Source of the DNA: Squalus acanthias
Lineage: Eukaryota
Assembly: GCA_030390025.1 (NCBI GenBank)
Contig: CM059432.1
Coordinates: forward strand, 83,268,001 to 83,332,000
Length of the DNA: 64,000 nt
Direction of reading: 5' to 3'
Part shown: piece by piece, positions 2,905 to 43,021 of the stretch
Numbering within the stretch: position 1 is the first letter of the stretch
Layout of the letters: each line of letters starts with the position of its first letter
The notes under the pieces: generated by a model
Database searches by the model: none
Seen by the model: the letters and a program-made list of their open reading frames with translations, nothing else
Told to the model about the DNA's origin: nothing
Translations under genes and position numbers: made by a program

Positions 2905-5900
2905 CTGCCATTACCCATCCCCACCCCTCTGCTTCTCTCACTGAGCTGCTGAATTCTCTTCTGAAATTTGGTTTCCGAATTCCTGGACTTCTCTGGAGAT
3001 CAAGACTACGCTTCTGCACTGGACTACACTTGATTACACCAATACACTTCTGCACTGGATTTCACCATAAGACATTTGCTGTGTCTCTGATTCTGCTGCT
3101 AAAAAATGTTGAAGTAATCATTTGGTCATCTTCCCCCACTGGGCGACTCGTTCTACTGGTTTTTCAGCCTTGTTGGCTGCTGACGAGTGGTTTTACATTC
3201 CTCCGCCACTTATGATCTACGGTAACCTCCAACTTCGCCATCATCTTTCTGCACCGCAACTGATTCTCATTCCCACGGCAAGAACCTCCATCCTCAAATT
3301 CTCTACCCTTCTAATAGCTTCTGGATTTCACTTGCCCGCTACATCTGTCTCCGAACATGGACAACAGTTTTGTTGATGCTCCATGCTGATTCCATCCTAC
3401 CTACATCAACTTTATCCCTCCACGGGACCTCTGACTTTTACTCTGGACTCCCTCCTATTGTTTTCCAATAATTGGTACATAACCAGGCCTATGTAACTTG
3501 AGTTTTTCCGTGTGTCCATTCGTGTGCGCATTTTGGCTGCCACTCCAGACTTGAGCCAATCACTTCTATTTCCACTTTTTTCTCCCCCTTTTTTCCCTCT
3601 CTATCCCGCCCTGACTGCTCTCTCCTGTCATCATGCCTCCTTTCATCTCTCCTCTCTCGGATACTCTGCCCTCCCAAATCCCTACCCCAATCCTTCATTA
3701 CTCTTCAACCTTCCTACTCTCCTGCCGTCGTCCCAGGCTTGACTCCCTCTTAGATAAGCCTACAGCTTCCCTCTGTGCCTCTCGGCATCCTCTGAAGGGC
3801 CCATCAAGGCACTCGTCACTGCCTCCTCATGGGCAGTAACTCCAACTGTCCCATCCCACTCTCTTGCCGACCTTCTCGCCCAACTCGCCTGCTGGGGGCT
3901 AATCTTGCCAATCACCTCCCCGTCCAACTTATCCCCCAGCGCTGATCCTGTGAACGCTGGCAATGGATCAGCCATCACCTCCCCTCTCCGCATCTCTCTC
4001 CAGAATCTCCGTTCACTTCTGAACAAGGCCCTTGCCATCCATGAGCTTATCGTGGATGATTGCATCGACATCATAGCCCTAACGGAAACTTGATTGAGGG
4101 GTGATGACCCCTTACCCCTAAATGAAGCCTCACCGCCTGGCTACACCTTCCACCACTTGCCCCGCTCAGACCGTTGTGGTGGCTCTCCTCCGGCACTTCA
4201 TCCTCCTTTGAGCATCTCACCTGGTTCCACCCATCTCACCTCTGATTTAAAATTCTCGTTCTCTACCGCCCACCCAAGTACCATAAAAATGTTATCACCG
4301 AGATATCTTCACTGCTTTCCTCCCTCAGCCTCTGCACCGAGCGACTTCTCATCCTCTGTGATTTCAACCTCCATCTCAATTCATCATGCTCTCTCTCCCC
4401 TGAGTTCACTACCCTCCTATCCTCCCTTAATCTCTCCAACCCATATTCACGGCCACCCCTCAATTTTGCCATCTCTCGTGACCTCGCTACTCCCATCGTG
4501 TCAATCGCAGACAAGGCCATCTCTGATCACTTCCTCGTATTGCTTTCCACCCACATCCTCCTTCCCCACCACCAACCCTACTTCCTTCTGTGTCCGCCCC
4601 TGAAAAAAACTCTCCCAACTCTCTTACTACTGCACTTACGAAATCCCAACTGTCCAGCCTTTGGCCCTCCATTCACCACGACATTTCAGCAGCTACCGAT
4701 CTGCTCAACCACACCCTTACCACTACCTTTGATGCCCTCGTCCCTATTAAAACAATTACTCTCTCTCACTCTGACCATTCCCCCTGGTACGGCCCTCATC
4801 TTTGCTCACTTAAGTCCAAGGGATACAGACTTGAACGGATTTGGCGGACAACTGGTTTAGCCATTCACCACCAGATCTGGCTGGACCACATAAAGCATTA
4901 TCTGGTCCTGCTCTCGTCTGCCAAAACTGCTCACTATTCCAGGATCATTCTGGAATGCAAAGACAACCCCGGCTCCTATTCTCTACTGCTAACCCCTCTC
5001 CCCTGTCTCCTCCACACTCCCCTCCAACAAGTGTGAGGAGCTCATGGACTTCTTTGTCTCTAAGATTGAGACCATCCGATTAGCTGCCTCTGCCACTTCC
5101 CTTCCTTCCCCTAGCCCAAAATTCCTCTAAGGTTCCCCCGTGCCCTAGCCCTGAACTCGCATCTTTCTCCAGTTCCTCTCCGATCTCCCCTCATGACCTC
5201 TCTGCACTCACCTTGTCCATAAGACCCACCTCCTGCTCCCTCGACCCTATTCCCACTGAACTACTGACCACCCAACGTCCTTTACTGGCTCCCATGTTAG
5301 CTGACATTGTTAATGGTTCGCTCTCCTCAGGTACTGATCCCCCTCCTTCAAATCTGCCGTCATCACCCCTCTCCTCAAAAAAACAACCCTTGACCCCTCC
5401 GTCCTTGCAAACTACCGCCCCATCTCCAACCTCCCTTTCCTTTCTAAAGTCCTCAAACATGTTGTCGTCTCCATAATCCATGCCCATCTCTCCCGGAACT
5501 CCATGTTTGAATCCCTCCAATCAGGTTTCCACTCAGCTACAGTACCGAAACGGCTCTCATCAAAGTCACAAATGTGACTGTGACAAAGGTAAACTATCCC
5601 TCCTCATCCTTCTCGACCTGTCTGCAGCCTTTGACACGGTTGACCACTCCATCCTCCTCTCCACCGCCATCCAGCTGGGTGGGACTACACTGGCCTGGTT
5701 CCATTCTTATCTATCTAATCATAGCCAGAGAATCACCTGAAATGGCTTCTCTTCCCGCTCCCGCATCGTTACCTTTGGTGTTCCCCAAGGATCTATGCTT
5801 GGCCTCCTCCTATTTCTCATCTACATGATGCCCCTCAGCGACATCATCCAAAAACACAGGGTCAGTTTCCACATGGACGTTGATGACACCCAGCTCTACC

Positions 5901-6835
5901 TCACCACCTCTTCTCTCGACCCCTCCACGGTCTCTAAATTGTCAGACTGCTTGTCCAACATCTAGTACTGGATGAGCAGAAATTTCTTCCAATTAAATAT
6001 TGGGACGACCAAAGCCATTGTCTTCAGTCCCCGCCACAAACATTGTTCCCTAGCCACTGACTCCATCCCTCTCCCTAGCATCTGTCTGAGGCTGAGCCAG
6101 ACTGTTCGCAACCTTGGTGTCATATTTGACCCTGAAATGAGCTAAGATTGCCTATTTCCACCTTTGTAACATCACCCATCTCCGCCCCTGCCTCAGGTCA
6201 TCTGCTGCTGAAACTCTCATACATGCCTTTGTTACCTCTAGACTTGACTATTCCAATGCACTCCTGGCTGGCCTCCCACATTCTACCCTACGTAAACTTG
6301 AGGTCATCCAAAACTCTGCTGCCCGTGTCCTAACTCGCACCAAGTCCCGTTCATCCATCACTCCTGTGCTCGCTGACCTACATTGGCTCCCGGTTAATCA
6401 ACGCCTCGATTTTAAAATTCTCATCCTTGTTTTCAAATCCCTACATGGCCTCACCCCTCCCTATCTCTGTAATCTCCTCCAGCTCTACAACACCCACCCC
6501 GCCCCCCACCGAGATATCTGCGCTCCTCTAATTCTGGTCTCTTGAGCATCTCTGATTTTAATCATTCCACCATTGGTGGCTGTGCCTTCAGCTGCCTAGG
6601 CCCTACACTTTGGAATTCCCTCCCTAAACCTCTCCGTCTCTCTACCTCTCTTTCCTCCTTTAAGACAGCTCCTTAAAACCTACCTCTTTGACCAAGCTTT
6701 TGGTCACCTGCCCTAATTTCTCCTTATGTGGCTCGGTGTCAAATTTTTATTTTTTGTCTTGTAACACTCCTGTGAAGTGTCTTGGGACATTTTACTACGT
6801 TAAAGGACCTATATAAATACCAGTTGTTGTTGCTG
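2905..6835 (+). mobile_element. L2-clade LINE, long and degenerate (EN + RT, frameshifted); 5' boundary approximate
   Basis: LQNLRSLLNK...IIALTET (EN), SCSLDPIPT and [13 protein letters not shown] (L2-type RT). Ends atataaataccagttgttgttg. Confidence 0.88.
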
Positions 6836-10288: not shown

Positions 10289-12035
10289 ACATTAACTGCC
10301 CTCTGAAATGGCCTAGCAAGCCACTCAGTTGTAACAAACCGCTACGAACACAATAATAAGAATGAAACTGGACGGACCACCCGGCATCGACCTCAGCACC
10401 AGCTATGGACACGACAACGGCACACCCAGCCCAGTCTACTCGGCAAAGTCCTCCTCACCAACATCTGGGGCCTTGTGCCAAAATTGGGAGAGCTGTCCCA
10501 CAGACTAGTCAAGCAACAGCCTGACATAGTCATACTCACAGAATCATTCCCTTCAGCCAATGTCCCAAACTCCTCCATCACCATTATTGAGTATGTCCTG
10601 TCCAACGGCAGGCCAGACTCACCAGGGGTGGTGGCACAGTGGTATACAGTCGGGAAGGAGTGGCCCTGGGAGTCCTCAACATTGACTCTGGACCCCATGA
10701 AGTCTCATGGCTTCGGGTCAAGCATGGGCAAGGAAACCTCCTGCTGATTACCACCTACCGCCCTCCCTCAGCTGATGAATCAGTACTCCTCCATGTTGAA
10801 CACCACTTGGAAGAAGCACTGAGAGTAGCAAGGGCACAGAATGTACTCTGGGTGGGGGACTTCAATGTTCATCACCAAGAGTGGCTCGGTAGCACCACTA
10901 CTGACCGAGCTGGCCGAGTCCTGAAGGACATAACTGCCAGTCTGGGCCTGCGACAGGTGGTGAGGCAACCAACACGATGGAAAAACTTACTTGATCTCGT
11001 CCTCATCAATCTACCTGTTGCAGATGCATCTGTCCATGACAGTATTGGTAGCAGTGATCACCGCATAGTCATTGTGGAGACGAAGTCCTGTCTTCACACT
11101 GAGGACACCCTCCATCGTGTTGTGTGGCAGGAAAACTGGGCATCCATGTGTTTAGCGCCATTCACAACTCCTCAGATAATGAAGCAGTCCATGCCCGCAT
11201 GCAACAAGACCTGGACAACGGTCAGGCTTGGGCTGATAAGTGTCAGGTAACATTCGCGCCACAGAAGTGCCAGGCAATGACTATCTCCAACAAGTGAGAG
11301 TCTAACCACCACCCCTTGACATTCAACGGCATTACCATCGCCAAACCCCCCACCATCAACATCCTGGAGGTCACCATTGACCAGAAACTTAACTGGACCA
11401 GCCACATAAATACTGTGGCAACAAGAGCAGGTCAGAGGCTAGGTATTCTGTGGCGAGTGTCTCACCTCCTGACTCCCCAAAGCCTTTCCACCATCTACAA
11501 GGCACAAGTAAGGAATGTGATGGAATACTCTCCACTTACCTGGATGAGTGCAGCTCCAACAACACTCAAGAAGCTCGACACCATCCAGGACAAAGCAGCC
11601 CGCTTGATTGGCACCCCATCCACCACCTTAAACATCCACTCCCTCTACCACCGGCGTACTGTGGCTGCAGTGTGTACCATCTACAAGATGCACTGCAGCA
11701 ACTCACCAAGGCTGCTTCGGCAGCATCACCCAAACCCGCGACCTCTTCCACCTCGAAGGACAAGGGCAGCAGGTGCATGGGAACACCACCACCTCCAAGT
11801 TCCCCTCCAAGTCACACACCATCCTGACTTAGAAGTATATCACCGATCCTTCATTGTCGATGGGTCAAAATCCTGGAACTCCCTGCCTAACAGCATTGTG
11901 GGAGTACCTTCACCACATGGACTGCAGTGGTTCAAGAAGGCAGCTCACCACCACCTTCTCAAGGGCAATTAGGGATGGGCAATAAATGCTGGCCTTGCCA
12001 GCGATGCCCACATCCCATAAATGAATTAAAAAAAA
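10289..12035 (+). mobile_element. CR1-group (Zenon-like) LINE with internal deletion joining EN to the 3' part of ORF2
   Basis: EN motifs PDIVILTES, YRPPS, VGDFN and SDH; later YKAQVRNVMEYSPLTW; poly-A tail. Clade name is tentative. Confidence 0.8.
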
Positions 12036-13456: not shown

Positions 13457-14144
13457 TTATCTAAGGAAGGATATACGTGCCTTGGAGAAAGTGCAATGAA
13501 GGTTCACTAGACTGGTTCCTGGGATGGGGGGGGGGGTGTCCTTTGAGGAGAGATTGAGGAGACTAGGCCTATATTCCCTAGAATTTAGAATGAGAGGTGA
13601 GCATATCAAAATATAAAATTCTTACAGGGCTTGACAGGTTAGATTCTGGGAGGATGTTTCCCCTGGCTGGGGAGTCTAGAACCAGGGGTCTCAGTCTCAG
13701 AATAAGGGGTCAGCCATTTAGGACTGAGATGAGGAGAAATTTCTTCACTCAAAGGGTTGTGAATCTTTGGAATTCTCTACTCCAGAGGGCTGTGGAGGCT
13801 CAGTCGTTGAGTATATTCAAGACAGAGATCGATAGATTTTTGGATATTAAGGGAATCAAGGGATATGGGGATAGTGCAGGAAGGTGGAGTTGAGGTGAGG
13901 TAGATCAGTCGTGATCTTATTGAATGGGGGAGCAGGCTTGAAGGGCCGAATGGCCTACTCCTGCTCCCATTTCGTATGTTCTTATTAGAGGATGAGGCTG
14001 TTATTTCTCCAGATGGTTGTCGGATGGTCAGAACAGTGGGACGGTGTAGCCGTGCATGTCATAGATAGAGTCATAGAGTCATAGAGCACGGATAGAGGCC
14101 CTTCGGCCCATCGTGTCCGCGCCGGCCATCAAGCCCTGTCTAAT

Positions 14145-17071
14145 CTAATCCCATATTCCAGCATTTGGTCCGTAGCCTTGTATACTATGGCATTTCAAGT
14201 GCTCATCCAAATGCTTCTTGAATGTTGTGAGGGTTCCTGCCTCCACAACCCTTTCAGGCAGTGAGTTCCAGACTCCAACCACCCTCTGAGTGAAAAAGTT
14301 CTTTCTCAAATCCCTTCTAAACCTCCCGCCCTTTACCTTGAATCTATGCCCCCTTGTTATAGACCCCTCTACTAAGGGAAAAAGCTCCTTAGTATCCATC
14401 CTATCTATGCCCCTCATAATTTTGTACACCTCAATCATGTCCCCCCTCAGCCTCCTCTGCTCCAAGGAAAACAAACCCAATCTGCCCAGTCTCTCTTCAT
14501 AGCTGAAGCACTCCAGCCCGGGTAACATTCTGGTGAATCTCCTCTGCACCCTCTCCAAAGCTATCACATCCTTCCTGTAGTGTGGCGACCAGAACTGCAC
14601 ACAGTATTCCAGATGTGGCCTAACCAGTGTTTTATACAGGTCCATCATAACCTCCTTGCTCTTATATTCTATGCCTCGGCTAATGAATGCAAGTATCCCA
14701 TATGCCTTTTTTACCACCTTATCCACCTGTTCCGCCGCCTTCAGGGATCTGTGTACTTGCACACCAAGATCCCTCTGACTCTCCGTCTTGCCTAGGGTCT
14801 TACCATTCATTGTGTATTCCCTTGCCTTGTTAGTCCCTCCAAAGTGCATCACCTCGCACTTTTCCGGATTAAATTCCATTTGCCACTGTTCCGCCCATCT
14901 GACCAACCCATCTATATCGTCCTGCAGACTGAGGCTACCCTCCTCGCTATTTACCACTCTACCAATTTTTGTATCATCCGCGAACTTACTGATCATACCT
15001 TTTACATTCATATCCAAGTCGTTAATGTAGACCACAAACAGCAAGGGACCCAGCACCGATCCCTGTGGTACCCCACTGGCCACAGGCTTCCAGTCACAAA
15101 AACAACCTTCGACCATCACCCTCTGCCTTCTGCCACTAAGCCAGCTTTGTATCCAATGTGCCAAGGCACCCTGGATTCCATGGGCTCTTACCTTCTTGAC
15201 CAGTCTCCTGTGCAGGACTTTATCGAAGGCCTTACTGAAATCCATGTATACTACATCCACTGCGTTACCCTCATCCACACACCTAGTCACCCCCTCAAAA
15301 AATTCAATCAAATTAGTCAGACATGATCTTCCCTTGACAAAGCCATGTTGGCTAACCCTGATTAATCCTTGCCTCTCCAAGTGGAGACTAATTTTGTCCC
15401 TCAGAATTTTTCCAATAATTTTCCTACCACTGATGTTAGGCTCACTGGCCTGTAGTTCCCCGGTTTTTCCCTACTCCCTTTCTTGAACAATGGTACTACA
15501 TTAGCGGTTCTCCAGTCCTCTGGCACATCCCCTGTGGCCAGAGAGGTTCTGAATATATGTGTTAGAGCCCCCGCAATCTCCTCCTTTGCCTCACACAGCA
15601 GCCTGGGATACATTTCGTCCGGACCTGGGGATTTATCCATTTTTAGACCTGCTAAAACCGCCAATACCTCCTCCCTCTCGATGTTAAAATGTTCGAGTAT
15701 ATCACAGTCCCCCTGCCCTAATTTTATGTCTGCATCATCCTTCTCCATAGTGAAAACAGATGCAAAGAATTCATTTAGAACCCCACCTACATCTTCCAGC
15801 TCCACACACAGATTGCCACTTTTGTCCCTAATGGGCTCTATTTTTTCCCTAGTTATCCTCTTACCCTTAATATACTTATAAAACATCTTAGGATTTTCCT
15901 TTATTTTGCTCGCCAGTGTTATTTCATGGCCCCTCTTTGATCTCCTAATTTCTTTTTTAAGTATCCCCCTGCACTTTTTGTACTCCTCTAGGGCTTCCTC
16001 CGTCTTTAGCATTTTGTATCTGCCAAAAGCCCTCCTTTTTTTCCTGATCCATTCTCGTATATCCCCTGACATCCAAGGTTCCCTGGGGTTTTTGGAACCA
16101 CCCTTGACCTTTATGGGAACATGCTGCCATTGTATGATCTCAATCTCCCTTCTGAAAGAATCCCATTGCTCCGATGCGGATTTTCCTACAAGCAGCTGAT
16201 CCCAGTCCATTTTGGCCAGATCCTGCCTTATCATATTAAAATCGGCCTTCCCCCAATTTAGAACCTTTATTTCCGGCCCATCCCTGTCCTTTTCCATGAC
16301 CACCTTAAATCTCACCGTATTATGGTCACTGTCACCAAAGTGCTCACCTACTAGCACTTCTTCCACTTGGCCGGCCACATTCCCTAGAATTAGGTCCAGT
16401 ACCGCCCCCTCCCTTGTAGGACTTTCTACATGCTGGCTCAAAAAGCTCTCCTGGATGCACTTTAAGAATTTTGAACCCTCTAAGCCCTTCACACTCTGAC
16501 TATCCCAATTAATATTGGGGAAGTTGAAATCCCCCATTATTATTACCCTATTATTTGCACACTTCTCTGAGATTTGCCTACATATCTGTTCCTCTAACTC
16601 CCCCTGACTGTTTGGGGGCCTATAGTACGCTACCAGCAAAGTGCTTGCCCCCTTTTTGTTTTTAAGCTCCACCCATATAGCCTCATTGGAGGAACCTGCT
16701 AATATATCATCCCTCCTTATGGCAGTAATTGATTCCTTAATTAATATTGCTACACCCCCTCCTCTTATACCTCCCCCTCTGTCTCGCCTGAAGATTCTGT
16801 ACCCCGGAATATTGAGCTGCCAGTCTTGCCCCTCCCTCAACCATGTCTCTGTGATAGCAACAATATCATACTCCCATGTGTTTATCAACACCTTCAGTTC
16901 ATCCACCTTATTCGCTAGACTCCTTGCATTAAAATAGATACCTTCCAGCCTTGTTCTTACATGTTTGCCCTGTCTTCCAAGCTGACTTGTTTTTTTCTCT
17001 ATATTTGACTGTACATCACCCCCTATTGTAGCTCCACTCTGTATCCCATCCCCCTGCCAAGTTAGTTTAAA
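14145..17071 (-). pseudogene. CR1 ORF2 (APE endonuclease + reverse transcriptase) with one frameshift
   Basis: Frame is open from 17071 through IYFNARS, AITETWL, MGDFN and YRPVSLTS. An A5 run at ~15407-15411 (A6 in copy 2) shifts the frame. The RT part has [15 protein letters not shown] and FADD. Confidence 0.9.
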
Positions 17072-18012
17072 CCCCCCCCAACAGTGCTAGCAAACCTCCC
17101 CGCAAGGATATTTGTCCCGCTCTGGTTCAGGTGCAAACCGTCCGACTTGTACAAGTCCCACCTTCCCCAGAAGCAGGCCCAGTGATCCAGGAAACTAAAA
17201 CCCTCCCTCCTGCACCAACTCTTTAGCCACGCATTCATCTGTTCTATCCTCCTATTCCTATACTCACTAGCACGTGGCACTGGGAGTAATCCAGAGATTA
17301 CAACCTTTGAGGTCCTGCTCTTTAATCTGCTGCCTAGCTCCCTAAATTCTTGATGCAGGACCTCATCCCCCTTCCTACCTATGTCGTTGGTCCCAATGTG
17401 AACCACGACCTCTGCCTGCTCACCCTCCCCCTTAAGAATGCCCTGTAGCCGCTCAGTGACATCCATGACCCTGGCCCCAGGGAGGCAACAAACCATCCTG
17501 GAGTCACGTTTACTGCCACAGAAACGCCTATCTGTTCCCCTTACGATAGAATCCCCTACCACTATTGCTCTCCCACTCTTTTTCCTCCCTTTCTGAGCAG
17601 CAGAAGCACCCCTGGTGCCAGGAAGTTGGCTGCTGCCGCTCTCCCCTGGTGAGTCATCCCCCTCAACAGTATCCAAATCGGTATACCTGTTTGTAAGGGG
17701 GATGACCGCAGGGGTCCCCTGTACTTCCTGCCTGCCTCTGCTGCTCCGCCTGATGGTCACCCATTTCCCTTCTGCCTGTGCAGCCCTACCCTGCGGCGTG
17801 ACCAACTCGCTAAACATGTCATCCACGACCCTCTCAGCATCGCGTATGCTCCAAAACTCATCCACCCGCAGCTCGAGCGCCGCAATGCGGTCTACAAGTA
17901 GCTGCAGCTGGATGCATTTCTCGCACACATGGGCCCCAGGGACACTGGCAGCGTCCCTGAATTCCCACATGGAGCAAGAGGAGCATAACACGGGGCTGAT
18001 CTCACCTGCCAT
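17062..18012 (-). CDS. CR1 ORF1p (316 aa): Cys/His-rich N-terminus, coiled coil, SGNH esterase-like domain
   Basis: CSSC...HVCEKC, LQLLVDRIAALELRV, IVVGDSIVR, HIGTND, DGLHLN. Confidence 0.9.
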   Translation of the reverse strand: MAGEISPVLCSSCSMWEFRDAASVPGAHVCEKCIQLQLLVDRIAALELRVDEFWSIRDAERVVDDMFSELVTPQGRAAQAEGKWVTIRRSSRGRQEVQGTPAVIPLTNRYTDLDTVEGDDSPGESGSSQLPGTRGASAAQKGRKKSGRAIVVGDSIVRGTDRRFCGSKRDSRMVCCLPGARVMDVTERLQGILKGEGEQAEVVVHIGTNDIGRKGDEVLHQEFRELGSRLKSRTSKVVISGLLPVPRASEYRNRRIEQMNAWLKSWCRREGFSFLDHWACFWGRWDLYKSDGLHLNQSGTNILAGRFASTVGGGLN

Positions 18013-19938: not shown

Positions 19939-20871
19939 ATGGCAGGGCAGCTCAGCAGCGTGGAGTGCTCCTCCTGTGCTATGTTGGAAGTCAGGGACAC
20001 TTTCGGTGTCCAGGGCGAACACACGTGCAGGAAGTGTCTCCAGCTGCAGCTACTCGAAATCCGCGTTTCAGAGCTGGAGCTGCGGCTGGAGTCACTGTGG
20101 AGCATCCGCAAAGCTGAGATCTTCATGGATAGCACGTTTAACAAGGTGGTCACACAGGCAGACAGGGAATGGCTGACCGCCAGACAGAGTAAAAGAACTA
20201 GGAAGGTAGTGCAGGAGTCCCCTGGGTCCATCTCCCTCTCCGACAGATTTTCCGTTTTGGATACTGATGGGGGAGATGGTTTCTCAGGGGAATGCAGCAA
20301 GAGCCAAGTCCGTGGCACTATGATTGGCTCAGCTGCACAGGAGGGGAGGAAAAAGAGTGGGAGAGCAATAGTGATAGGGGATTCTATCGTAAGGGGAACA
20401 GATAGACGTTTCTGTGGCCGCAGACGTGACTCCAGGATGGTATGTTGCCTCCCTGGTGCCAGGGTCAAGGATGTCACTGAACGGCTGCAGGGCATTCTGA
20501 AGGGGGAGGGCGAACAGTCAGAGGTCGTGGTTCACATTGGTACCAACGACATGGGTAGAAAGAGGGATGAGGTCCTGCAACAAGAATTTAGGGAGCTAGG
20601 TAGCAGATTAAAAAGCAGGACCTCAAAGGTTGTAATCTCTGGATTACTCCCGGTGCCACGTGCTAGTGAGTATAGGAATAGGAGGATAGAGCAGATGAAT
20701 GCGTGGCTAAAGAGTTGGTGCAGGAGGGAGGGCTTTAGTTTCCTGGATCACTGGGTCTGCTTCTGGGGAAGGTGGGACCTGTACAAGTCGGACGGGTTGC
20801 ACCTGAACCGGAACGGGACCAACATCCTTGCGGGGAGGTTTGCTAGTACTGTTGGGGGGGGTTTAAACTAA
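19939..20871 (+). CDS. CR1 ORF1p (310 aa), SGNH esterase-type
   Basis: Intact ORF. C-terminal half nearly identical to 17062-18012 (GDSIVRGTDRRFC, HIGTND, DGLHLN, ...VGGGLN*). Confidence 0.9.
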   Translation: MAGQLSSVECSSCAMLEVRDTFGVQGEHTCRKCLQLQLLEIRVSELELRLESLWSIRKAEIFMDSTFNKVVTQADREWLTARQSKRTRKVVQESPGSISLSDRFSVLDTDGGDGFSGECSKSQVRGTMIGSAAQEGRKKSGRAIVIGDSIVRGTDRRFCGRRRDSRMVCCLPGARVKDVTERLQGILKGEGEQSEVVVHIGTNDMGRKRDEVLQQEFRELGSRLKSRTSKVVISGLLPVPRASEYRNRRIEQMNAWLKSWCRREGFSFLDHWVCFWGRWDLYKSDGLHLNRNGTNILAGRFASTVGGGLN

Positions 20872-22420
20872 CTTGGCAGGGGGATGGGATATGGAGTGGA
20901 GCTATAGTAGGGGGTGATGCACAGCCAAATATAGAGGAAAAAACAAGTCAGCCTGAAGGCAGAGCAAATATGTAATGGCACAAGGGAGTATGGCAAGGCT
21001 GGATGACATTTATTTTAATGCAAGGAGTCTTGCGAGTAAGGCAGATGAATTGAAGGTGTTGATGAACACATGGGAGTATGATATTGTTGCTATCACAGAG
21101 ACATGGTTGAGGGAGGGGCAGGACTGGCAGCTCAATATTCCGGGGTATAGAATCTTCAGGCGAGACAGAGGGGGGTGTAAAAGAGGAGGGGGTGTCGCAA
21201 TATTAATCAAGGAGTCAATTACTGCTGTAAGGAGGGATGATATCTTAGCAGGTTCCTCTAATGAGGCCATATGGGTAGAACTTAAAAACAAAAAGGGGGC
21301 AAGCACTTTGCTGGGAGTGTACTATAGGCCCCCAAACAGTCAGGGGGAGATAGAGGAACAGATATGTAGGCAAATCTCAGAGAAGTGTAGAAAAAATAGG
21401 GTAATAATAGTAGGGGATTTCAACTTCCCCAATATTAACTGGGATAGTCAGAGTGTGAAAGGCTTAGAGGGTACGGAATTCTTAATGTGCCTCCAGGAGA
21501 GCTTTTTGAGCCAGCATGTAGAAAGTCCTACAAGGGAGGGGGCTGTACTGGACCTAATTCTAGGGAATGTAGCTGGGCAAGTGGTAGAAGTGTTAGTAGG
21601 AGAGCATTTTGGTGACAGTGACCATAATTCGGTGAGATTTAAGGTAGTCATGGAAAAGGACAAAGATGGACCGGAAATAAAGGTTCTAAATTGGGGGAAG
21701 GCCGATTTTAATATGATAAGGCAGGATCTGGCCAAAGTGGACTGGGATCAGCTACTTGTAGGAAAATCCACATCAGAGCAGTGGGAGTCTTTCAGAAAGG
21801 AAATAGAGAGAGTACAACGGCAACATATTCCCGTAAAGGTCAAGGGTGGGACCAACAAGCCCAGGGAACCCTGGATGTCAAGGGATATACGAGAATGGAT
21901 TAGGAAAAAAAGGGAGGCTTTTGGCAGATACAAAGGACTAAAAACAGTGGAAGCCCTAGAGGAGTATAGAAAGTGCAGGGGGGTACTTAAAAAAGAAATT
22001 AGGAGAGTGAAGAGGGGGCATGAAATAACACTGGCGGGCAAAATAAAGGAAAATCCAAGGTGTTTTATAAGTATATTAAGGGCAAGAGGATAACCAGGGA
22101 AAGAGTAGGGCCCATTAGGGACCATAGTGGCAATCTGTGTGTAGAGCCAGAAGATGTAGGTGGGGTTTTAAATGAATATTTTGCATCTGTGTTCACTATG
22201 GAGAAGGACGATGTAGGCATCGAAATCAGACAAGGGGATTGTGATATACTTGAACAAATTAGTATTGAGAGGGAGGAGGTACTAGCGGTTTTAGCGGGCT
22301 TAAAAGTGGATAAATCCCCAGGCCCAGACGAGATGTATCCCAGGCTGCTGTGTGAGGCAAGGGAGGAGATTGCAGGAGCTCTGACACAAATTTTCAGAAC
22401 ATCTCTGGCCACAGGGGAGG

Positions 22421-22719
22421 TCAAAATTGAGAGGTCGCACAACACCAGGTTATAGTCCAACAGTTTTATTTGAAATCACAAGCTTTCGGAGCTATCGATT
22501 GCTCCTTCCTCAGGTGAAGTAAATTAGATACAGAATCGCCAAAGCATATATAGATAGAGAACAAAGCATGTGTACCTTACAATTGCAGACCACTAAATTA
22601 AATCATCCTGACTATCTGCCGAGGTGTGATAAAGTTAATTAAGTCAGCCAGGAAGGTACCACATCAAAGACATAGCAAGATACAACTGAGACAATGAGGT
22701 GTAGTCGCAGGGGTTCTAA
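22421..22719 (-). mobile_element. Penelope terminal fragment inserted in CR1 ORF2
   Basis: Contains the gcacaacaccaggttatagtccaacagttttatttgaaatcacaagctttcggagc motif, as at 13300-13356. Interrupts GEV|(PE)DWR with a small target deletion and no TSD. Confidence 0.8.
22476..22517 (-). ncRNA. Minimal type I hammerhead ribozyme motif (PLE-associated)
   Basis: UCAC-CUGAGGA-A-GGAGC(aaucgaua)GCUCC-GAA-AGCU-U-GUGA. Confidence 0.72.
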
Positions 22720-24475
22720 GGACTGGAGAACAGCTAACGTAGTACCATTATTCAAGAAGGGTAGTAGGGATAAACCAGGGAATTATAGGCCAGTGAGCCT
22801 AACATCAGTGGTAGGGAAATTATTGGAAAAAATTCTGAGGGACAGAATTAGTCTCCACTTGGAGAGGCAAGGATTAATCAAGGATAGTCAGCATGTCTTT
22901 GTCAGGGGGAGATCATGTCTAACCAATTTGATTGAATTTTTCGAGGGGGTGACTAGGTGTGTGGATGAGGGTAGTGCAGTTGATGTGGTCTACATGGACT
23001 TCAGTAAGGCTTTTGACAAAGTCCCGCATGGGAGACTGGTCAAGAAGGTAAGAGCCCATGGGATCCAGGGCAACTTGGCACATTGGATCCAAAATTGGCT
23101 TAGTGGCAGGAGGCAGAGGGTGATGGCCGAAGGTTGTTTTTGTGACTGGAAGCCTGTGTCCAGTGGTGTACCGCAGGGATCGGTGCTGGGTCCTTTGCCG
23201 TTTGTAGTGTACATTAATGATTTAGATATGAATGTAGGAGGTATGATCAGTAAGTTTGCAGATGACACGAAAATTGGTGGAGTGGTAAATAGCGAGGAGG
23301 GAAGCCTCAAGCTACAGGACGATATAGACGGGTTGGTCAGATGGGCAGAACAGTGGCAAATGGAATTTAACCCTGAAAAGTGTGAGGTGATGCATTTTGG
23401 GAGGACTAACAAGGCAAGGGAATACACAATGAATGGTAGGACCCTAGGGAGGGACCTTGGTGTGCATGTACATAGATCCCTGAAGGCAGCAGGACAGGTA
23501 GATAAGGTGGTTAAAAAGGCATATGGGATACTTGCCTTCATTAGCCGAGGCATAGAATATAAGAGCAGGGAGGTTATGATGGAGCTGTACAAAACGCTAG
23601 TTAGGCCACAGCTGGAATACTGTGTGCAGTTCTGGTCGCCACACTATAGGAAGGATGTGATTGGATTGGAGAGGGTGCAGAGGAGATTCACCAGGATGTT
23701 ACCTGGGCTGCAGCGCTTCAGCTATGAAGAGAGACTGGACAGGCTGGAGTTGTTTTCCTTAGAGCAGAGAAGGCTGAGGGGGGACCTGATTGAGGTGTAC
23801 AAAATTATGAGGGGCATAGATAGGGTAGATAGAAAGGAACTTTTCCCCTTAGTAGAGGGGTCAATAACAAGGGGGCATAGTTTCAAGGTAAGGGGCAGGA
23901 GGTTTAGAGGGGATTTGAGGAAAAACTTTTTCACCCAGAGGGTGGTTGGAATCTGGAACTCACTGCCTGAAAGGGTGGTAGAGGCAGGAACCCTCACAAC
24001 ATTCAAGAAGCATTTAGATGAGCACTTGAAACGCCATAGCATACAAGGCTACGGACCAAGTGCTGGAAAATGGATTAGAATAGACAGGGCTTGATGGCCG
24101 GCGCGGACACGATGGGCCTCTTTCTGTGCTGTATAACTCTATGACTCTATGAGAGTGACCAATGTCATATCCGTTTTCAAAAAGGGAGACAGAGGTAATC
24201 CGGACAAGCCAGTTAGTTTAACATCTGTGGTAGGGAAAATTTTGGAATCTTTTACAGATAAAATTACTAATTATCTAGAAGACAACAAAATAATTAGCAG
24301 CCAACATGGATTACAGAAAGGAAGGTTGTTCTGGATAAACCTGAAGAGTTCTTGGATGGAGTAAATGCAGTGGGTGTGGTGTACATGGACTTTCAAAAAG
24401 TCTTTAACAAAGTACCACACAGGAGACTACTGGAGAAGATTAAAGACATCCTGCAGGGGCATATCAGATCCTGGA

Positions 24476-25420: not shown

Positions 25421-25787
25421 ATACTGGTAGACAAGTCTAAAGCCAAAACACCTTTCGCTGGTAGTTCAAAATAACATTCTTAAGATTAGGTTTTTTGTAG
25501 GTTGTAGCTGGTACGTTCAAACCCAGCTCCTGGACTGTATTTAGTACCTGCTGTCTGGTTTTGCAGGCAGACCCCAGCAAGAAGCTCTAATGAGCTAATC
25601 CTCCAGATGCAGAACTATTGCATTCTGAGATGCACTACAACCACAGTTCCTGTAAATGGTGCCCTTCTTTATGTCCACCTATCCTCTGGAACTTCCTCGC
25701 CAACTCTCTATCTTTAAAAACTCTCTCAAAACCCAGCTCTTCAACCAAGCTTCCTAATCTCTCCTCCCTGGATCAGGGTTTGTTTAC

Positions 25788-27932
25788 TCCCAACTGTCCA
25801 GCCTCTGGCCCTCGATCCACCATGACATTTCTGCAGCTACCGATCTGCTCAACCACACCCTCACCACCTTTGATGCCCTAGTCCCTACTAAAACAATTAC
25901 CCTCTCTCATCCGGGCCATTCCCCCTGGTACGGCTCTCATCTTTGCTCCCTTAAGTCCAAGGGACGCAGACTCGAACGGATATGGCAGGCAACTGGTTTA
26001 GCCATTCACCGCCAGATCTGGCTGGGACCACATAAAGCACTATCGGGCCCTGCTCTTGTCTGCCAAAATTGCTCACTATTCCAATGCAAAGATAAACCCC
26101 GGCTCCTATTCTCGACTGCTAACCGTCTCCTCCACCCTCACCTCTGATAACAAGTGTGAGGAGCTCATGGACTTCTTTGTGTCTAAGATTGAGACCATCT
26201 GTTCAGCTGCCTCTGCCACTTCCCTTCCTTCCCCTAGCCCTGAACTCACATCTTTCTCCAGTTTCTCTCCGATCTTCCCTCATGACCTCTCTGCGCTCAT
26301 CTTGTCCATGAGACCCACCTTCTGCTCCCTCGACCCTATTCCCACCAAACTGCTGACCACCCAACTTCCTTTTCTGGCTCCCATGTTAGCTGATATTAAC
26401 GGCTCTCTCCCTCAGGTACTGTCCCCCTCCCCCTCAAATCTGCCCTCATCACCCCCTCCTCAAAAAATCAACCCTTGATCCCTCCGTCCTTGCAAACTAC
26501 CGCCCCATCTCCAACCTCCCTTTCCTCTCCAAAGTCCTTCAACATGTTGTCGCCTCCCAAATCCGTGCCCATCTTTCCCGCAATTCCATGTTTGAATCCC
26601 TCCAATCAGGTTTCCGCCCGTGTCACAGTACTGAAACGGCTCTCATCAAAGTCACAAATGACATCCTTTCTCGTCCTTCTTGACTTGTCTGCAGCCTTTG
26701 ACCGGTTGACCACTCCATTCTTCTCCAACGCCTCTCCACTGTCGTCCAGCTGGGTGGGACTGCACTCGCCTGGTTCCATTCTTATCTATCTAATCGTAGC
26801 CAGAGAATCACCTGCAACAGCTTCTCTTCCCGCTCCCGCATCGTTACCTCTGGTGTCCCCCAAGGATCTATCCTTGGCCCCCTCCTATTTCTCATCTACA
26901 TGTTGCCCCTTGGTGACATCATCTGAAAACACAGCGTCAGTTTCCACATGTACACTGACGACACCCAGCTCTACCTCACTACCTCTTCTTTCGACCCCTC
27001 CACGGTGTCTAAATTGTCAGACTGTTGGTCCGACATACAGTTCTGGATGAGCAAAAATTTTCTCCAATTAAACATTGGGAAGACCGAAGCCATTGTTTTC
27101 GGTCCCCGCCACAAACTCCTAGGGAACCCAGCCAATGACTCCATCTCTCTCCCTAACATCCGTCTGAGGCTGAACCACTGTTTGCAACCTTGGTGTCATA
27201 TTTGACCCTGAAATGAGCTTCCGACCACATATCCGCAGCATAACAAAGACCGCCTACTTCCACCTCCATAACATCGCCCGTCTCTGCCCTTGCCTCAGCT
27301 CATCCGCTGCTGAAACCGTCATCCATGCCTTTGTTACCTCTAGACTTGACTATTCCAACGCACTCCTGGCTGGCCTTCCACATTCCACCCTACGTAAACT
27401 TAAGGTCATCCAAAACTCTGCTGCCTGTGTCCTAACTCGCACCAAGTACCATTCGCCCATCTCCCCTGTGCTTGCTGACCTACATTGACTCCCGGTTAAG
27501 CAGCACCTCGATTTCAAAATTCTCATCCTTGTTTTCAAATCCCTCCATGGCCTCGCTCCTTCCCATCTCTAATCTCCTTCAGCCCCACAAACCCTCCCCC
27601 CCCCCCGTCCCGAGATACCTGCGCTCCTCCAATTCTGCCCTCTTGAGCATCCCTGATTATAATCGCTCAACCATTGGTGGCCATGCCTTTTGTTGCCTAG
27701 GCCCTAAGCTCTGGAATTCCCTACCTAAACCTCTCCACCTCGCTACCTCTCTTTCCTCCTTTAAGACGCTCCTTAAAACCTACCTCTTTGACCAAGCTTT
27801 TGGTCACCTGCCCTAATTTATCCTTATGTGGCTCGGTGTCAAATTTTTTGTCTTAAAATACTCCTGTGCAGCGCCTTGGGACGTTTTACTACGTTAAAGG
27901 CGCTATATAAATACAAATTGTTGTTGTTGTTT
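25788..27932 (+). mobile_element. L2-clade LINE, 5'-truncated; same family as 2905-6835
   Basis: [25 protein letters not shown] and HAFVTSRLDYSN motifs; (ttg)n tail. Confidence 0.9.
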
Positions 27933-33394: not shown

Positions 33395-36300
33395 CTAAGT
33401 GTCATAAAACTATCAATGACCTCACCAGGGCAAGCAAGGTATGGGTCAGCAGCATCTTGCAAGAGTGCGTTGCACACAGCGTATCAGACAGTCACAGTGA
33501 TCTCCCTCACACTGTTAAAGTGAATGAATTGCTTACCATCAATGCCCAGGATGTTTTTATAGCCCCAGCCTTTACCTCAAACTGTTTCTCCTCTCAGTCC
33601 TACATTCAATCATCGTACGAAAAGCTTCATATGGAATCTAATTGCATAGTGCATGCTCCTATCATCATGCTAGTTATATGCTGCTTGCCGACACTGTCTT
33701 TTGCAGTCTCTCACAGTATCCGAAGGTAATTTAAACATTTTGCTTTCTTTTTCATAGCCAAGACAGCACCTAATAACAGCACAAGAAAAGCCATAGGTGG
33801 TGGACGGCCTGACCTCCACCCTCTAACTGTATGAGGAGGAAGCCCTTGGATTCGTGAGGAGGAGATTATAAAGTGTCGATTACAGTGAGCTATGAGGACA
33901 AGTGTCAGCTGCAGGTCCATTATGGCATTCTGCTTCTCCTTCTCAAGCTAATGGTACCACACATTACCTGCTGGCTAGCTACATCATTAAACCCTCATGT
34001 GATTCCTACTGAAAGTCTCATGTGAAATCCTCAGTAACCCATTCTATTCTCTTTTCTTGTCTTCTTCTAGATGTTCCAGACCGAGAAGAATCAGGATAAA
34101 GCACATCATCACATGTGCCATCATCACCAGCCCAGAGACATCCACGCAGCAACATTCAAGAGTGAGCTACAAGGGAGTGTATGAGTGGACAGGAGGAGCT
34201 GGGGGTGAAAGATGAGGAGGAAGAAATTGATGGCTGGAGTAAATAGATGTTACACCAGCAATAGAAGTGTCTGGGGACCCAGATCTCATAAGTCCTGATT
34301 TTAAAAGAAGGATGCTTGAAAAGCACTAAAGGTATGTGCAGTCACTGTGGATGGGTCTGGCAACGTGCAGCATATGGTGGAGGAGTACACCACCCAAATT
34401 GATGGAAGGTGTCGTCGACAGTGCTATCAAGCAGCACTTACTCACCAATAACCTGCTCACTGATGCCCAGTTTGGGTTCTGCCAGGACCACTCGGCTCCA
34501 GACTTCATTACAGACTTGGTCCAAACATGGACAAAAGAGCTGAATTCCAGAGGTGAGGTGAGAGTGACTGCCCTTGACACCAAGGCAGCATTTGACTGAG
34601 TGTGGCATCAAGGAGCCCTAGTAAAACTGAAGTCAATGGGAATCGAGGGGAAAACTCTCCACTGGCTGGAGTCATACCTAGCACAAAGGAAGATGGTTGT
34701 GGTGGTTGGAGGTCAATCATCACAGCCCCAGGACATCGCTGCAGGAGTTCCTCAGGGCAGTGTCCTAGGCCCAACCATCTTCAGCTGCTTCATCAATGAC
34801 CTTCCCTCCATCATAAGGTCAGAAATGGGGATGTTCGCTGATGACTGCACAGTGTTCAATGCCATTCACAACTCCTCAGATAAAGAAGCAGTCCATGACC
34901 GCATGCAGCAAGACCTGGACGACATTCAGGCTTGGGCTGATAAGTGGCAGGTAATATTCGCGCCACACAATTGCCAGGCAATGACTATCTCGAGCGTCTA
35001 ACCACCGCCCCTTGACATTCAACGGCATTACCATCGCCGAATCCCCCACCATCAACATCCTGGGGGAGGGTCACCTTTGACCAGAAACTTAACTGGACCA
35101 GCCACATAAATACTGTGGCAACAAGAGCAGGTCAGAGGCTGGGTATTCTGCGACGAGTGTCTCACCTCCTGCCTCCCAAAGCATTTCCACCATCTACAAG
35201 GCACAAGTCAGGAGTGTGATGGAATACTCTCCACTTGCCTGGATGAGTGCAGCTCCAACAAAACTCAAGAAGTTCGACACCATCCAAGACAAAGCTGCCC
35301 ACTTGATTGACACCCCATCCATCACCTTGAACATTCACTCCCTCCACCACCGGCGTACCGTGGCTGCAGTGTGTACCATCTACAAGATGCACTGCAGCAA
35401 CTCGCCAAGGCTTCTTCAGCAGCACCTCCCAAACCCGCGACCTCTACCACCTAGAAGGACAAGGGCAGCAGGCACATGGGAACACCACCACCTCCAAGTT
35501 CCCCTCCAAGTCGCACACCATCCTGACTTGGAAGTATATCACCGTTCCTCATTGTCGCTGGGTCAAAATCCTCGAACTCCCTCCCTAACAGCACTGTGGG
35601 AGTACCTTCACCACACGGACTGCAGCGGTTCAAGGCGGCAGCTCACCACCACCTTCTCAAGGGCAACTAGGGATGGGCAATAAATGATGGCCTTGCCAGC
35701 GATGCCCACATCCCATGAACTAATAAAAAAAATTCGTGACACCATGATTTCTCTACATTGCAGCAGATCCTGGAGGCAGCGTGTGGCATCTCCAGGCCAA
35801 TCTGCAAGGGAGCCCCTCCACCACAGATGCTCATAGAGGCCTGAGGTGTCAGCTTTCTCTCCCAACCTCCAAACGATGCAAGCTGAGAAAGAGACAAGTA
35901 TCTCTTCAGAACTTCACTGATGTCATGATACCATTAGTTCTGCTTTCCTGCAGATCAGTGGCCATGCATAGGCATTGCCCAGTACTGGTGGCATGGCAGG
36001 AATGTGCTCACGATGTTGCTGTCTCTCAGAATAGCAGCACGTGCATACCTGCTGCCAGCACCCTCACAAGCCTGCGCATGTGGCAGAAAGGAAGCAGGGC
36101 TAGGCAAGTAGAGCTGTAGCAAGTAGAAAGGTGCAGCCTGCGTGGGATCTCCAGACCGCCGTGTGGTCGCGAAGCTTAGCGGGAACGTTGGACAGGACTA
36201 TTGCACTGCGCAGATCTGGTAATCAAGGGATGGTCTCTTGCATCAAATTGGAAAGAATGTTTCTGGCAGTTAGCAATGAGTTGTCCTTTGTATCCCCTTC

Positions 36301-38089: not shown

Positions 38090-38640
38090 CCCCCAACAAA
38101 CAAGTTCCTGCCACCACCCCACCCCCGAACAAACTTCTAACCTTCCCACCTCCCCCCCGAGTTTCTGACCTTTTCCCTCCACAACAAGTTCCTGACCTCC
38201 CCTCCCTCCGCCCAAGTTCCTGACCTTCTCCACCTGACCCAAGTTACTGACCTTCTATCCCTCCCCTCACCCCGGTTCCTGACCTTACCCCCACCCTCCA
38301 AGTTTCTGACCTTTTCCCTCCCAAAAGTTCCTGACCTTCTCTGCCCCACTGCCCGCCCCCCACACATTCCTGACCTTCCCCCCACCCCAACGAGTTTCTG
38401 ACCTTTTCCCTCCCCAACAAGTTGCTGACCACCCCCCCCCACCCCACTCAGTTGCTGACCTTCTCCCCCTGCCCAAGTTCCTGACCTCCCACCACCCCCC
38501 CAATAGATGGGGCATTGTGTGGGGGTTACGGATTGTTAACAGGTTTATTGGGTATGAACTGAACAGTGACAGTGGTTCCTGACCTTCTCTTCCTCCCCCC
38601 GCACCCCCACCCCCCGGGGTTCCTGAAGACCTCTCCCCCT
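38090..38640. repeat. Degenerate minisatellite, ~30-35 bp unit with core aagttcctgacctt plus C-runs
   Basis: Repeated gttcctgacctt / gtttctgacctt / gttgctgacc cores. Confidence 0.8.
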
Positions 38641-38729
38641 CCGATCCTCTCTCTTTCCTCCTTTTGATCTTCTCTCTCCCCCCCGATCACCTCTCTCCCC
38701 CCCCCTCCTTTCCCCAGCAGTCTCTCTCC

Positions 38730-41700
38730 CCGTGCCTCTCTCTCTGCCCCCCGTGTCTCTCTCTCTCCCCGTGTCACTCTCTCTCTCTCCCTCCCCGTGT
38801 CTCTCTCTCTCTCTCTCTCCCCCCCCGTGTCTCTCTCTCTCTCTCCCCCCCCGTGTCTCTCTCTCTCTCCCCCCCCCCCCGTGTCTCTCTCTCTCTCTCC
38901 CCCCCCCGTGTCTCTCTCTCTCCCCCCCGTGTCTCTCTCTCTCCCCTCCCCCCGTGTCTCTCTCTCTCTCTCTCTCCCCCGTCTCTCTCTCTCTCTCCCC
39001 CGTGTCTCTCTCTCTCTCTCTCTCCCCCGTGTCTCTCTCTCTCTCTCTCTCCCCCGTGTCTCTCTCTCTCTCTCTCTCCCCCGTGTCTCTCTCTCTCTCT
39101 CTCCCCCCCCGTGTCTCTCTCTCTCTCCCCCCCCCGTGTCCTCTCTCTCTCTCTCTCTCCCCCCCCCCCCGTGTCTCTCTCTCTCTCTCCCCCCCCGTGT
39201 CTCTCTCTCTCTCCTCCCCCCCGTATCTCTCTCTCTCTCTCCCCCCCCCCGTGTCTCTCTCTCTCCCCCCCCGTGTCTCTCTCTCTCCCCCCCCGTGTCT
39301 CTCTCTCCCCCCCCGTGTCTCTCTCTCCCCCCCGTGTCTCTCTCTCTCTCCCCCCGTGTCTCTCTCTCTCCCCCCGTGTCTCTCTCTCCTCTCCCCCCCG
39401 TGTCTCTCTCTCTCTCCCCCCCGTGTCTCTCTCTCTCTCCCCCCCGTGTCTCTCTCTCTCCCCCCCGTGTCTCTCTCTCTCTCTCCCCCCGTGTCTCTCT
39501 CTCTCTCCCCCCCGTGTCTCTCTCTCTCCACCCCGTGTCTCTCTCTCTCTCCCCCCCGTGTCTCTCTCTCTCTCTCCGCCCCCGTGTCTCTCTCTCTCTC
39601 CCCCCCGTGTCTCTCTCTCCCCCCCCGTCTCTCTCTCTCCCCCCCGTGTCTCTCTCTCCCCCCCCCCGTGTCTCTCTCTCTCCCCCCCCGTGTCTCTCTC
39701 TCTCCCCCCCCGTGTCTCTCTCTCTCCCCCCCGTGTCTCTCTCTCTCCCCCCCGTGTCTCTCTCTCTCCCCCCCCGTGTCTCTCTCTCTCCCCCCCGTGT
39801 CTCTCTCTCTCCCCCCCCCGTGTCTCTCTCTCTCCCCCCCGTGTCTCTCTCTCTCCCCCCCGTGTCTCTCTCTCTCTCCCCCCCCCGTGTCTCTCTCTCT
39901 CCCCCCCCGTGTCTCTCTCTCTCCCCCCCCGTGTCTCTCTCTCTCCCCCCCCGTGTCTCTCTCTCCCCCCCCGTGTCTCTCTCTCTCCCCCCCGTGTCTC
40001 TCTCTCTACCCCCGTGTCTCTCTCTCTCCCCCCCCCCCGTGTCTCTCTCTCTCCCCCCCCCCGGTGTCTCTCTCTCCCCCCCCCCCGTGTCTCTCTCTCT
40101 CTCGCCCCCCGTGTCTCTCTCTCTCTCGCCCCCCGTGTCTCTCTCTCTCTCCCCCCCCGTGTCTCTCTCTCTCTCGCCCCCCGTGTCTCTCTCTCTCTCG
40201 CCCCCCGTGTCTCTCTCTCTCTCCCCCCCCGTGTCTCTCTCTCTCTCCCCCCCCCCGTGTCTCTCTCTCTCTCCCCCCCCGTGTCTCTCTCTCTCTCTCC
40301 CCCCGTGTCTCTCTCTCTCTCTCCCCCCGTGTCTCTCTCTCCCCCCGTGTCTCTCTCTCTCTCTCCCCCCGTGTCTCTCTCTCCCCCCGTGTCTCTCTCT
40401 CTCTCTCCCCCCGTGTCTCTCTCTCTCTCCCCCCCCCGTGTCTCTCTCTCTCTCCCCCCGTGTCTCTCTCTCTCTCCCCCCGTGTCTCTCTCTCTCTCTC
40501 CCCCCGTGTCTCTCTCTCTCTCTCCCCCCGTGTCTCTCTCTCTCTCCCCCCGTGTCTCTCTCTCTCTCTCTCCCCCCGTGTCTCTCTCTCTCTCTCCCCC
40601 CGTGTCTCTCTCTCTCTCTCCCCCCGTGTCTCTCTCTCTCTCTCCCCCCGTGTCTCTGTCTCTCTCTCCCCCCGTGTCTCTCTCTCTCTCTCCCCCCCGT
40701 GTCTGTCTCTCTCTCTCCCCCCCGTGTCTGTCTCTCTCTCTCTCTCCCCCCCGTGTCTCTCTCTCTCTCCCCCCCGTGTCTCTCTCTCTCTCTCCCCGTG
40801 TGTCTCTCTCTCTCTCCCCCCCGTGTGTCTCTCTCTCTCCCCCCCGTGTGTGTCTCTCTCTCTCTCCCCCCCGTGTCTCTCTCTCTCTCCCCCCCGTGTC
40901 TCTCTCTCTCTCTCCCCCCCGTGTCTCTCTCTCTCTCCCCCCGTGTCTCTCTCTCTCTCTCTCCCCCCCGTGTCTCTCTCTCTCTCTCTCCCCCCCCGTG
41001 TCTCTCTCTCTCTCTCCCCCCCGTGTCTCTCTCTCTCTCTCTCTCTCCCCCCCGTGTCTCTCTCTCTCTCTCTCTCTCTCTCCCCCCGTGTCTCTCTCTC
41101 TCTCCCCCCCGTGTCTGTCTCTCTCTCTCTCTCCCCCCGTGTCTCTCTCTCTCTCTCTCTCTCTCCCCCCCGTGTCTCTCTCTCTCTCTCCCCGTGTGTC
41201 TCTCTCTCTCTCCCCCCCGTGTGTCTCTCTCTCTCCCCCCCGTGTGTGTCTCTCTCTCTCTCCCCCCCGTGTCTCTCTCTCTCTCCCCCCCGTGTGTGTC
41301 TCTCTCTCTCCCCCCCGTGTCTCTCTCTCTCTCCCCCCCGTGTCTCTCTCTCTCTCCCCCCCGTGTCTCTCTCTCTCTCCCCCCCGTGTCTCTCTCTCTC
41401 TCCCCCCCGTGTCTCTCTCTCTCTCTCCCCCCCGTGTCTCTCTCTCTCTCCCCCCCGTGTCTCTCTCTCTCCCCCCCGTGTCTCTCTCTCTCTCTCTCCC
41501 CCCCCCCGTGTCTCTCTCTCTCTCCCCCCCGTGTCTCTCTCTCTCTCCGCCCCCGTGTCTCTCTCTCTCTCTCCCCCCCGTGTCTCTCTCTCCCCCCCCG
41601 TCTCTCTCTCTCCCCCCCGTGCCTCTCTCTCCCCCCCGTGTCTCTCTCTCTCCCCCCCCGTGTCTCTCTCTCTCCCCCCCCGTGTCTCTCTCTCTCCCCC

Positions 41701-42990: not shown

Positions 42991-43021
<31 letters not shown>

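Follow-up and report, generated by a model that had tools for sequence, protein, structure and literature searches.

Introduction

In viral -1 frameshifting at U_UUA_AAC, as in infectious bronchitis virus (IBV), an in-phase slippery heptamer lies at the end of an upstream open reading frame (ORF) and the polymerase ORF follows in the -1 frame; retroviral pro-pol sites also use U_UUA_AAC. The same arrangement is found at the junction of ORF1 and ORF2 in a CR1 long interspersed nuclear element (LINE) of Squalus acanthias, within a window of 64,000 nucleotides (GenBank assembly GCA_030390025.1, contig CM059432.1, positions 83,268,001 to 83,332,000 of the forward strand), the whole stretch that was analysed and the one to which all positions below refer. 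By its domain content the element is an esterase-type CR1 LINE, a type that includes turtle PsCR1 and elasmobranch HER1; in itself it is an ordinary CR1, and the junction is what stands out. Compared with the viral sites, the host is a non-LTR element (one without long terminal repeats), and a positioned run of G residues follows the heptamer where neither a pseudoknot nor a hairpin was found.

Frameshifting as such is an existing idea for other LINEs, because the figure legend of a review (PMC5911963) states that TRE5-A and TRE3-A of Dictyostelium, non-LTR elements with an apurinic/apyrimidinic endonuclease (APE), need a -1 frameshift for ORF2; these belong to a different clade and a different host. 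In the Penelope-like elements, a different class of LTR-less retroelement, an upstream ORF1 is likewise joined by a frameshift according to a figure legend (PMC8557442), with a pseudoknot drawn there of a kind not found at the CR1 junction. Other LINEs also have a bicistronic RNA and need little ORF2 protein (ORF2p), notably SART1, with its UAAUG coupling, and mammalian L1, with AUG-independent initiation of ORF2 (passages in PMC3894237 and PMC5009743). These make a separate ORF2p, whereas the CR1 junction has an in-phase heptamer with an overlapping open -1 frame and, in the first of the two copies in the window (copy 1), no overlap of stop and start. The translation of LINE ORF2 is described as an open question in a passage of PMC3894237.

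The known elements closest to that of the window are ZfL2-1, whose ORF1 protein (ORF1p) is represented by PDB entry 4c1b, chicken CR1 and other esterase-type (Type IV) CR1 elements, in which ORF1 has the same Cys pairs and SGNH esterase, ORF2 combines APE and reverse transcriptase (RT), and the tail consists of octamers; the esterase ORF1 type is described in sections of PMC13343379 and PMC4120745. Frameshifting is not mentioned in the searched text of these two papers, nor in that of PMC3905857 and PMC2734521 (the last using 'frame-shift' for mutations), and in the searched text of PMC13343379, a CR1 survey of 2026, overlap and translation are likewise not mentioned. None of the searched texts offered a mechanism by which CR1 ORF2 is translated. 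No proposal of CR1 frameshifting was found in the full-text literature that was searched; Haas et al. 1997, Kajikawa et al. 1997, Kapitonov and Jurka 2003 and the Repbase notes, which lay outside that search, may already mention the overlap or a frameshift.

Conservation of the heptamer at the ORF1/ORF2 junction

ORF1 of copy 1 ends GGT TTA AAC TAA, and the heptamer T_TTA_AAC stands in X_XXY_YYZ phase directly against the stop, at the position and in the phase given in a preliminary description of this DNA made from the letters alone (Table 1). Since TTTAAAC occurs 15 times over both strands of the window, a single occurrence proves little, and the evidence of the heptamer lies in its conservation across families.

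To this end metagenome contigs were scanned with a pattern that describes an ORF1 motif lying about 55 codons ahead of the stop, the heptamer itself playing no part in the selection. The scan yielded 31 loci, of which 25 were CR1 and six were unrelated chance matches that were dropped; 20 of the CR1 loci reach the junction and five end earlier. With the two window copies this makes 22 junctions, falling into 9 clusters at <70% identity. Locus L001 matches proteins filed under a sturgeon assembly (a record flagged unverified), L020 and L028 match the crane protein P0124, and the remaining loci are treated as bird-type by resemblance. Scans of IMG/VR returned no relatives and tblastn against plasmids and phages no match; 8 matches in genome contigs were unrelated chance matches and were dropped as well.

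The string TTTAAACT is exact in 17 of the 22 junctions, the other five differing from it at 1, 1, 2, 2 and 3 positions. The silent wobble T ahead of TTA AAC is present in all 22, TTA keeps its third base in 19 of them and AAC in 20; for comparison, 39 upstream third positions have a mean conservation of 0.585 and a maximum of 0.95, and upstream of the site the shark, sturgeon-type and bird-type loci share just 33-55% of their bases. The adjoining ORF1 stop varies (TAA 9, TAG 8, TGA 3, mutated 2). Over the two window ORF1s taken together TTA serves for 5 of 51 Leu, AAC for 8 of 13 Asn and T-ending codons for 35 of 124 Gly, Ala and Thr, and by the codon use of these two copies only, the joint chance of the three silent choices is about 0.017 per independent lineage. 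The heptamer is synonymously conserved from shark- to bird-type loci, far beyond the window copy, and the synonymous loss for which the preliminary description had suggested looking is clearly not seen. Family contigs carry no substitution in 17041-17074 among the 40 of 92 rows listed, a figure not used as a count.

The -1 frame beyond and before the heptamer

From the heptamer the -1 frame of copy 1 is open for 556 codons, far past the 55 first claimed, and the endonuclease Tyr of YFNARS is codon 45; in the other direction a TAG closes it five codons upstream, which agrees with the 15 nt originally given. Since in 15 of the 22 loci a stop closes the -1 frame no more than 8 codons ahead of the heptamer, and an AUG is found there in 3, the junctions have no shared upstream start. 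The start of the endonuclease is reached in 15 loci, nine of which have it in the -1 frame relative to the heptamer; the linker between the two measures 33 to 90 codons. The nine in-frame linkers add up to 567 codons, with 2 stops in the -1 frame as compared with 23 and 50 in the other frames once the ORF1 stops are subtracted. Even before the first in-frame AUG (five loci, four clusters) it contains 2 stops in 238 codons, where base shuffles of the stretch give 13.0 expected stops and none of 5000 was as low as 2. A stop-free -1 frame ahead of the first AUG is not predicted by reinitiation at a downstream AUG.

The preliminary description had further stated that no AUG precedes the endonuclease in this copy. 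This holds for copy 1, which has no ATG in the -1 frame between the heptamer and the endonuclease Tyr, and fails as a trait of the family: at 16958/16957 copy 2 and the family contigs of runs X1 and X4 have 15 extra bases that include an in-frame ATG. The absence of the AUG is private to copy 1, and the argument from it is weak. An AUG before the endonuclease is also lacking in L001, L013 and L023, and AUG positions vary between families; a conserved in-frame AUG is present in the shark family and in three bird-type clusters, and not across CR1.

Past the site, the -1 frame tends to x-[MLW]-x-G-[DEG]-G across the 22 junctions, and an AUG standing after the stop may be the hydrophobic residue of this fusion-linker motif, not a start.

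In two ray gene models, P0121 and P0037, the esterase continues by way of F-K-L to the endonuclease; their joins are probably single-copy indels, yet they give the same -1 reading. A search for longer fusions of ORF1 returned 7 proteins, one of which is an esterase-endonuclease gene model, and a search with the N-terminus of ORF2 returned 6 proteins, which start at predicted Met codons and have no bearing on the junction. Another G-run (window 17079-17072, minus strand) precedes the heptamer in the shark and ray families (P0025, P0121); a change in its length would place ORF1 and ORF2 in one frame, as the ray gene model P0121 seems to show.

C-termini of ORF1 proteins

The protein record bears on the same junction from the other side. 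Among the matches listed, a C-terminal LN is found in 87 of 120 homologues of ORF1, which come from sharks, rays, a bony fish, frogs, turtles and lizards; it is preceded by 12 different amino acids, which in just 3 of the 87 lack any T-ending codon. LN stays at the extreme end whether the tail after the DGxH motif has 25, 27, 32 or 39 residues. The fold does not need it, because the crystallised chain of the ZfL2-1 esterase stops two profile positions before LN.

From 150 representatives at 50% identity we used the 88 whose C-terminus lies 22-40 residues after DGxH; the other 62, having no motif or short or longer tails, were left out. The last three residues are able to encode a canonical heptamer in 56 of the 88, as against 2-11 at eleven upstream offsets and 3.7% of internal tripeptides. 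LN ends 48 of these proteins (tails of 25 to 39 residues), QGN 8 and SKN 1, Gln preceding GN in all 8 that end in GN. At the level of protein only, QGN would fit G_GGA_AAC and SKN A_AAA_AAC. A passage of PMC5009743 names four heptamers among those on which mammalian ribosomes shift most readily, and these two and U_UUA_AAC are three of the four. A FastTree tree was built from 86 esterase domains with their tails removed, the window protein not being among them; in it the named vertebrate CR1 group has LN in 32 of 34 rows, and in a third group LN, GN, KN and EN endings are mixed beside 17 other endings; LN, GN and KN ends are interleaved within one clade.

Sequence downstream of the heptamer

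The G-rich tract noted in the preliminary description is present and positionally conserved; the stimulatory role that was suggested for it makes it a candidate only. With two loci left out for deletions, G is found at +11 to +15 in 15, 15, 15, 19 and 16 of 20 loci and at +18 to +20 in 13, 17 and 17, and other subfamilies in the family contigs diverge from copy 1 just past the G block (17044-17047). The run could be an RNA stimulator or could encode the G-[DE]-G motif of a transframe peptide, alternatives between which the data do not decide. Just past the site a G4Hunter-like score reaches 1.2-1.5, a value within the top 4% of the scoring windows along the element, but no more than a hint in a G-rich strand. 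A canonical pseudoknot or stem-loop 5-9 nt downstream was not seen in the folds, in which pseudoknots were not modelled. The site would work like a -1 programmed ribosomal frameshifting signal but is not filed as one of the pseudoknot type.

A frameshift model and its rivals

A deeply conserved, in-phase slippery site together with an open -1 frame is the basis for the frameshift reading: as far as comparison of sequences can carry the argument, it is likely that programmed -1 ribosomal frameshifting is the main route by which ORF2 of esterase-type CR1 LINEs is made. The majority of ribosomes would read ...x-Leu-Asn and stop, yielding ORF1p. In the others, tRNA-Leu on UUA and tRNA-Asn on AAC would slip back by one base onto UUU and AAA, and these ribosomes would bypass the stop and read through a linker of 30-90 codons into the endonuclease and reverse transcriptase. 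The pause would come from the G-run that lies 11 nt on, together with the stop as the next codon to be read. The product would be an ORF1-ORF2 fusion of about 1,290 aa, by arithmetic from the ORF coordinates, and the rate of frameshifting would set a low ratio of ORF2 to ORF1, as in gag-pol; such a gag-pol-style fusion had been suggested in the preliminary description, and the comparison lends it good support. If tandem slippage follows the standard model, the peptide across the junction would be L-N-L-T-W, in place of the F-K-L-T-W given previously. The slip itself, the fusion protein and the role of the G-run in pausing are steps that we infer rather than observe. A more sweeping version is put forward tentatively, as a possibility that we do not favour at present: -1 frameshifting would be ancestral and general for ORF2 in the esterase-bearing CR1 of vertebrates and some other animals, lineages having switched among U_UUA_AAC, G_GGA_AAC and A_AAA_AAC, and the stimulator would be, in place of a pseudoknot, the unstructured G-run at a distance of 11 nt, either recognised by a protein or folded into an RNA G-quadruplex. 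Stimulation by G-quadruplexes is known, according to a passage of PMC5009743, solely from synthetic constructs.

A number of observations weigh against frameshifting. The endonuclease is out of the -1 frame in 6 of 15 loci, which we take as probable indels in decayed copies. An AUG stands 2 nt after the ORF1 stop in 8 of the 22 junctions (3 of the 9 clusters), and the shark family has an AUG in good context 7 codons before the endonuclease Tyr. As to sampling, one assembly supplies 15 of the 20 metagenome junctions, and the evidence from QGN and SKN is protein-only, with a ranking profile for those proteins that was made from LN-enders; 28 of the 86 tree rows have no such ending, including a 9-row clade of L2-like look. 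Nor does RNA structure come to its aid: in none of the 22 loci do the 80 nt after the site fold better than shuffled sequence (z -0.85 to +2.6; pseudoknots and G-quadruplexes not modelled), a search for long-range duplexes brought up no distant partner that is conserved, and of the 21 pairs given by RNAalifold for 7 bird-type copies 0 show a compensatory change.

The AUGs among these points are what the main rival would call for, namely termination at the ORF1 stop followed by a restart at a nearby AUG or non-AUG codon, with the heptamer and G-run serving as a reinitiation signal and with either no fusion or both routes in use. TTG just after the stop in 5 further junctions and the conserved AUG just before the endonuclease in the shark family are in keeping with it, as are the precedent of SART1, which uses an overlapping UAAUG (passage in PMC3894237), and the view in a passage of PMC5009743 that in mammalian LINEs AUG-independent initiation is likelier than bypassing. 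An adjacent or overlapping stop and start is absent from both window copies; in the junctions counted above the AUG follows 2 nt after the stop. Reinitiation gives no account of the in-phase X_XXY_YYZ form of the conserved string, of the fit between the end residues of distant relatives and other heptamers, or of the freedom from stops of the -1 frame upstream of the first AUG; the loci with no AUG before the endonuclease and the shifting AUG positions between families are further points against it. We consider it unlikely as the explanation of the junction, while it may operate alongside frameshifting.

A constraint on the protein combined with descent, whereby ORF1p would need its C-terminal Leu-Asn and the codons would be a relic or a codon bias with no recoding, is already largely refuted and is given very little credence. 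A role in packing is plausible for a Leu close to where the last SGNH helix ends, and the families are related, so that the 9 clusters are not fully independent; this cannot account for a silent T kept throughout despite the divergence of upstream third positions and flanking bases, for a ZfL2-1 esterase that does without LN, or for the use of TTA, a rare Leu codon in the window ORF1s. No more credible is a signal outside translation, either one for splicing of an ORF2 mRNA, with branch point and acceptor (ACTAAC, with AG 7 nt on), or a palindromic DNA site, GTTTAAAC. These motifs occur in both window copies, and both readings were rejected because neither motif is kept in other loci: the stop differs among junctions, and bird-type loci mostly have C ahead of the heptamer. 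A joint at 17054 is absent among the 7 joints listed from 4 runs of contigs, a weak argument, since contigs drop rare forms.

The CR1 element and its surroundings

The coordinates of the features are collected in Table 1. The SGNH esterase of ORF1 is matched by PF13472 (E 1.4e-15, residues 152-299), and a profile built from 33 ORF1 relatives matches the ZfL2-1 esterase, 4c1b, with E 1e-43; among named proteins the best relatives of ORF1 come from sharks and rays, including a Pristiophorus protein of 69% identity, and by themselves they would point to a host that is probably a cartilaginous fish. Copy 1 is broken, as one internal frameshift splits ORF2 into two parts. Short octamer repeats at the 3' end without poly(A), as found here, are a hallmark of CR1. 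Protein P0009, filed under Pseudomonas aeruginosa, has 63% identity to the window ORF1 and the C-terminus GLN, and is probably animal DNA inside a bacterial record.

Table 1. Features of the two CR1 copies and of their ORF1/ORF2 junctions in the window
Feature	Position	Strand	Remarks
CR1-type LINE, near full-length (copy 1)	18012-14065	-	ORF1, ORF2 and 3' octamer repeat
CR1 ORF1, 316 aa	17062..18012	-	ATG at 18012; N-terminal Cys pairs, then SGNH esterase; C-terminus G-L-N-stop
TAG closing the -1 frame	17087..17089	-	five codons upstream of heptamer
Slippery heptamer T_TTA_AAC	17065..17071	-	X_XXY_YYZ phase; abuts ORF1 stop
ORF1 stop TAA	17062..17064	-
Linker, open in -1 frame	16937..17061	-	heptamer to endonuclease
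G-runs after heptamer	17045..17054	-	+11..+15 (17054-17050) and +18..+20 (17047-17045)
15-nt deletion site private to copy 1	16957..16958	-	family members have an in-frame ATG here, 7 codons before endonuclease Tyr
ORF2 part 1, in -1 frame: linker, APE endonuclease, start of RT region	15401..17071	-	PF03372, E 5.9e-16
ORF2 part 2: reverse transcriptase	14145..15470	-	PF00078, E 7.7e-28
3' tail, 2.8 octamer repeats without poly(A)	14065..14086	-
Second CR1 copy (copy 2), more broken	19939-24152	+	head-to-head with copy 1
ORF1 of copy 2	19939..20871	+	73% aa identity to copy 1; also G-L-N-stop at end
Heptamer T_TTA_AAC in copy 2	20862..20868	+	flanks same as copy 1 over 44 nt
Two ATGs in endonuclease frame of copy 2	20975..20992	+	at 20975 and 20990; the second also in family contigs

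The damage in copy 2 comprises a 1-nt loss in the linker, a further frameshift in ORF2 and an insertion of about 290 nt near 22430-22716. A third CR1 family at 54497-56436 (plus strand), with 38% aa identity in ORF2 and no ORF1, is truncated just upstream of the endonuclease, and its remaining part has no Met before YLNARS. Fragments of other LINE families, with weak similarity to CR1 ORF2, lie at 4094-6545, 25758-27816, 10307-11972 and 34600-35683, and a low-complexity CT/GA-rich repeat of about 6.5 kb at 38500-45000 gives rise to long spurious ORFs.

Implications for CR1 biology

CR1 makes up 11.8% of the chicken genome assembly (as given in a passage of PMC11835228). If the frameshift reading is true, the dominant retrotransposon of most non-mammalian vertebrates would use retrovirus-style recoding, directed by a candidate signal only about 30 nt long, and, should the G-run act as a quadruplex, this would be a natural use of a mode of stimulation so far described from synthetic constructs. 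ORF2 annotations begun at the first AUG would then be wrong, a CR1 copy would have to pass different tests to be called 'intact', and assays with engineered CR1 would have to include the native junction. For the element itself, the CR1 reverse transcriptase would carry the esterase module of ORF1, which would tie the enzyme in cis to the assemblies of ORF1p.

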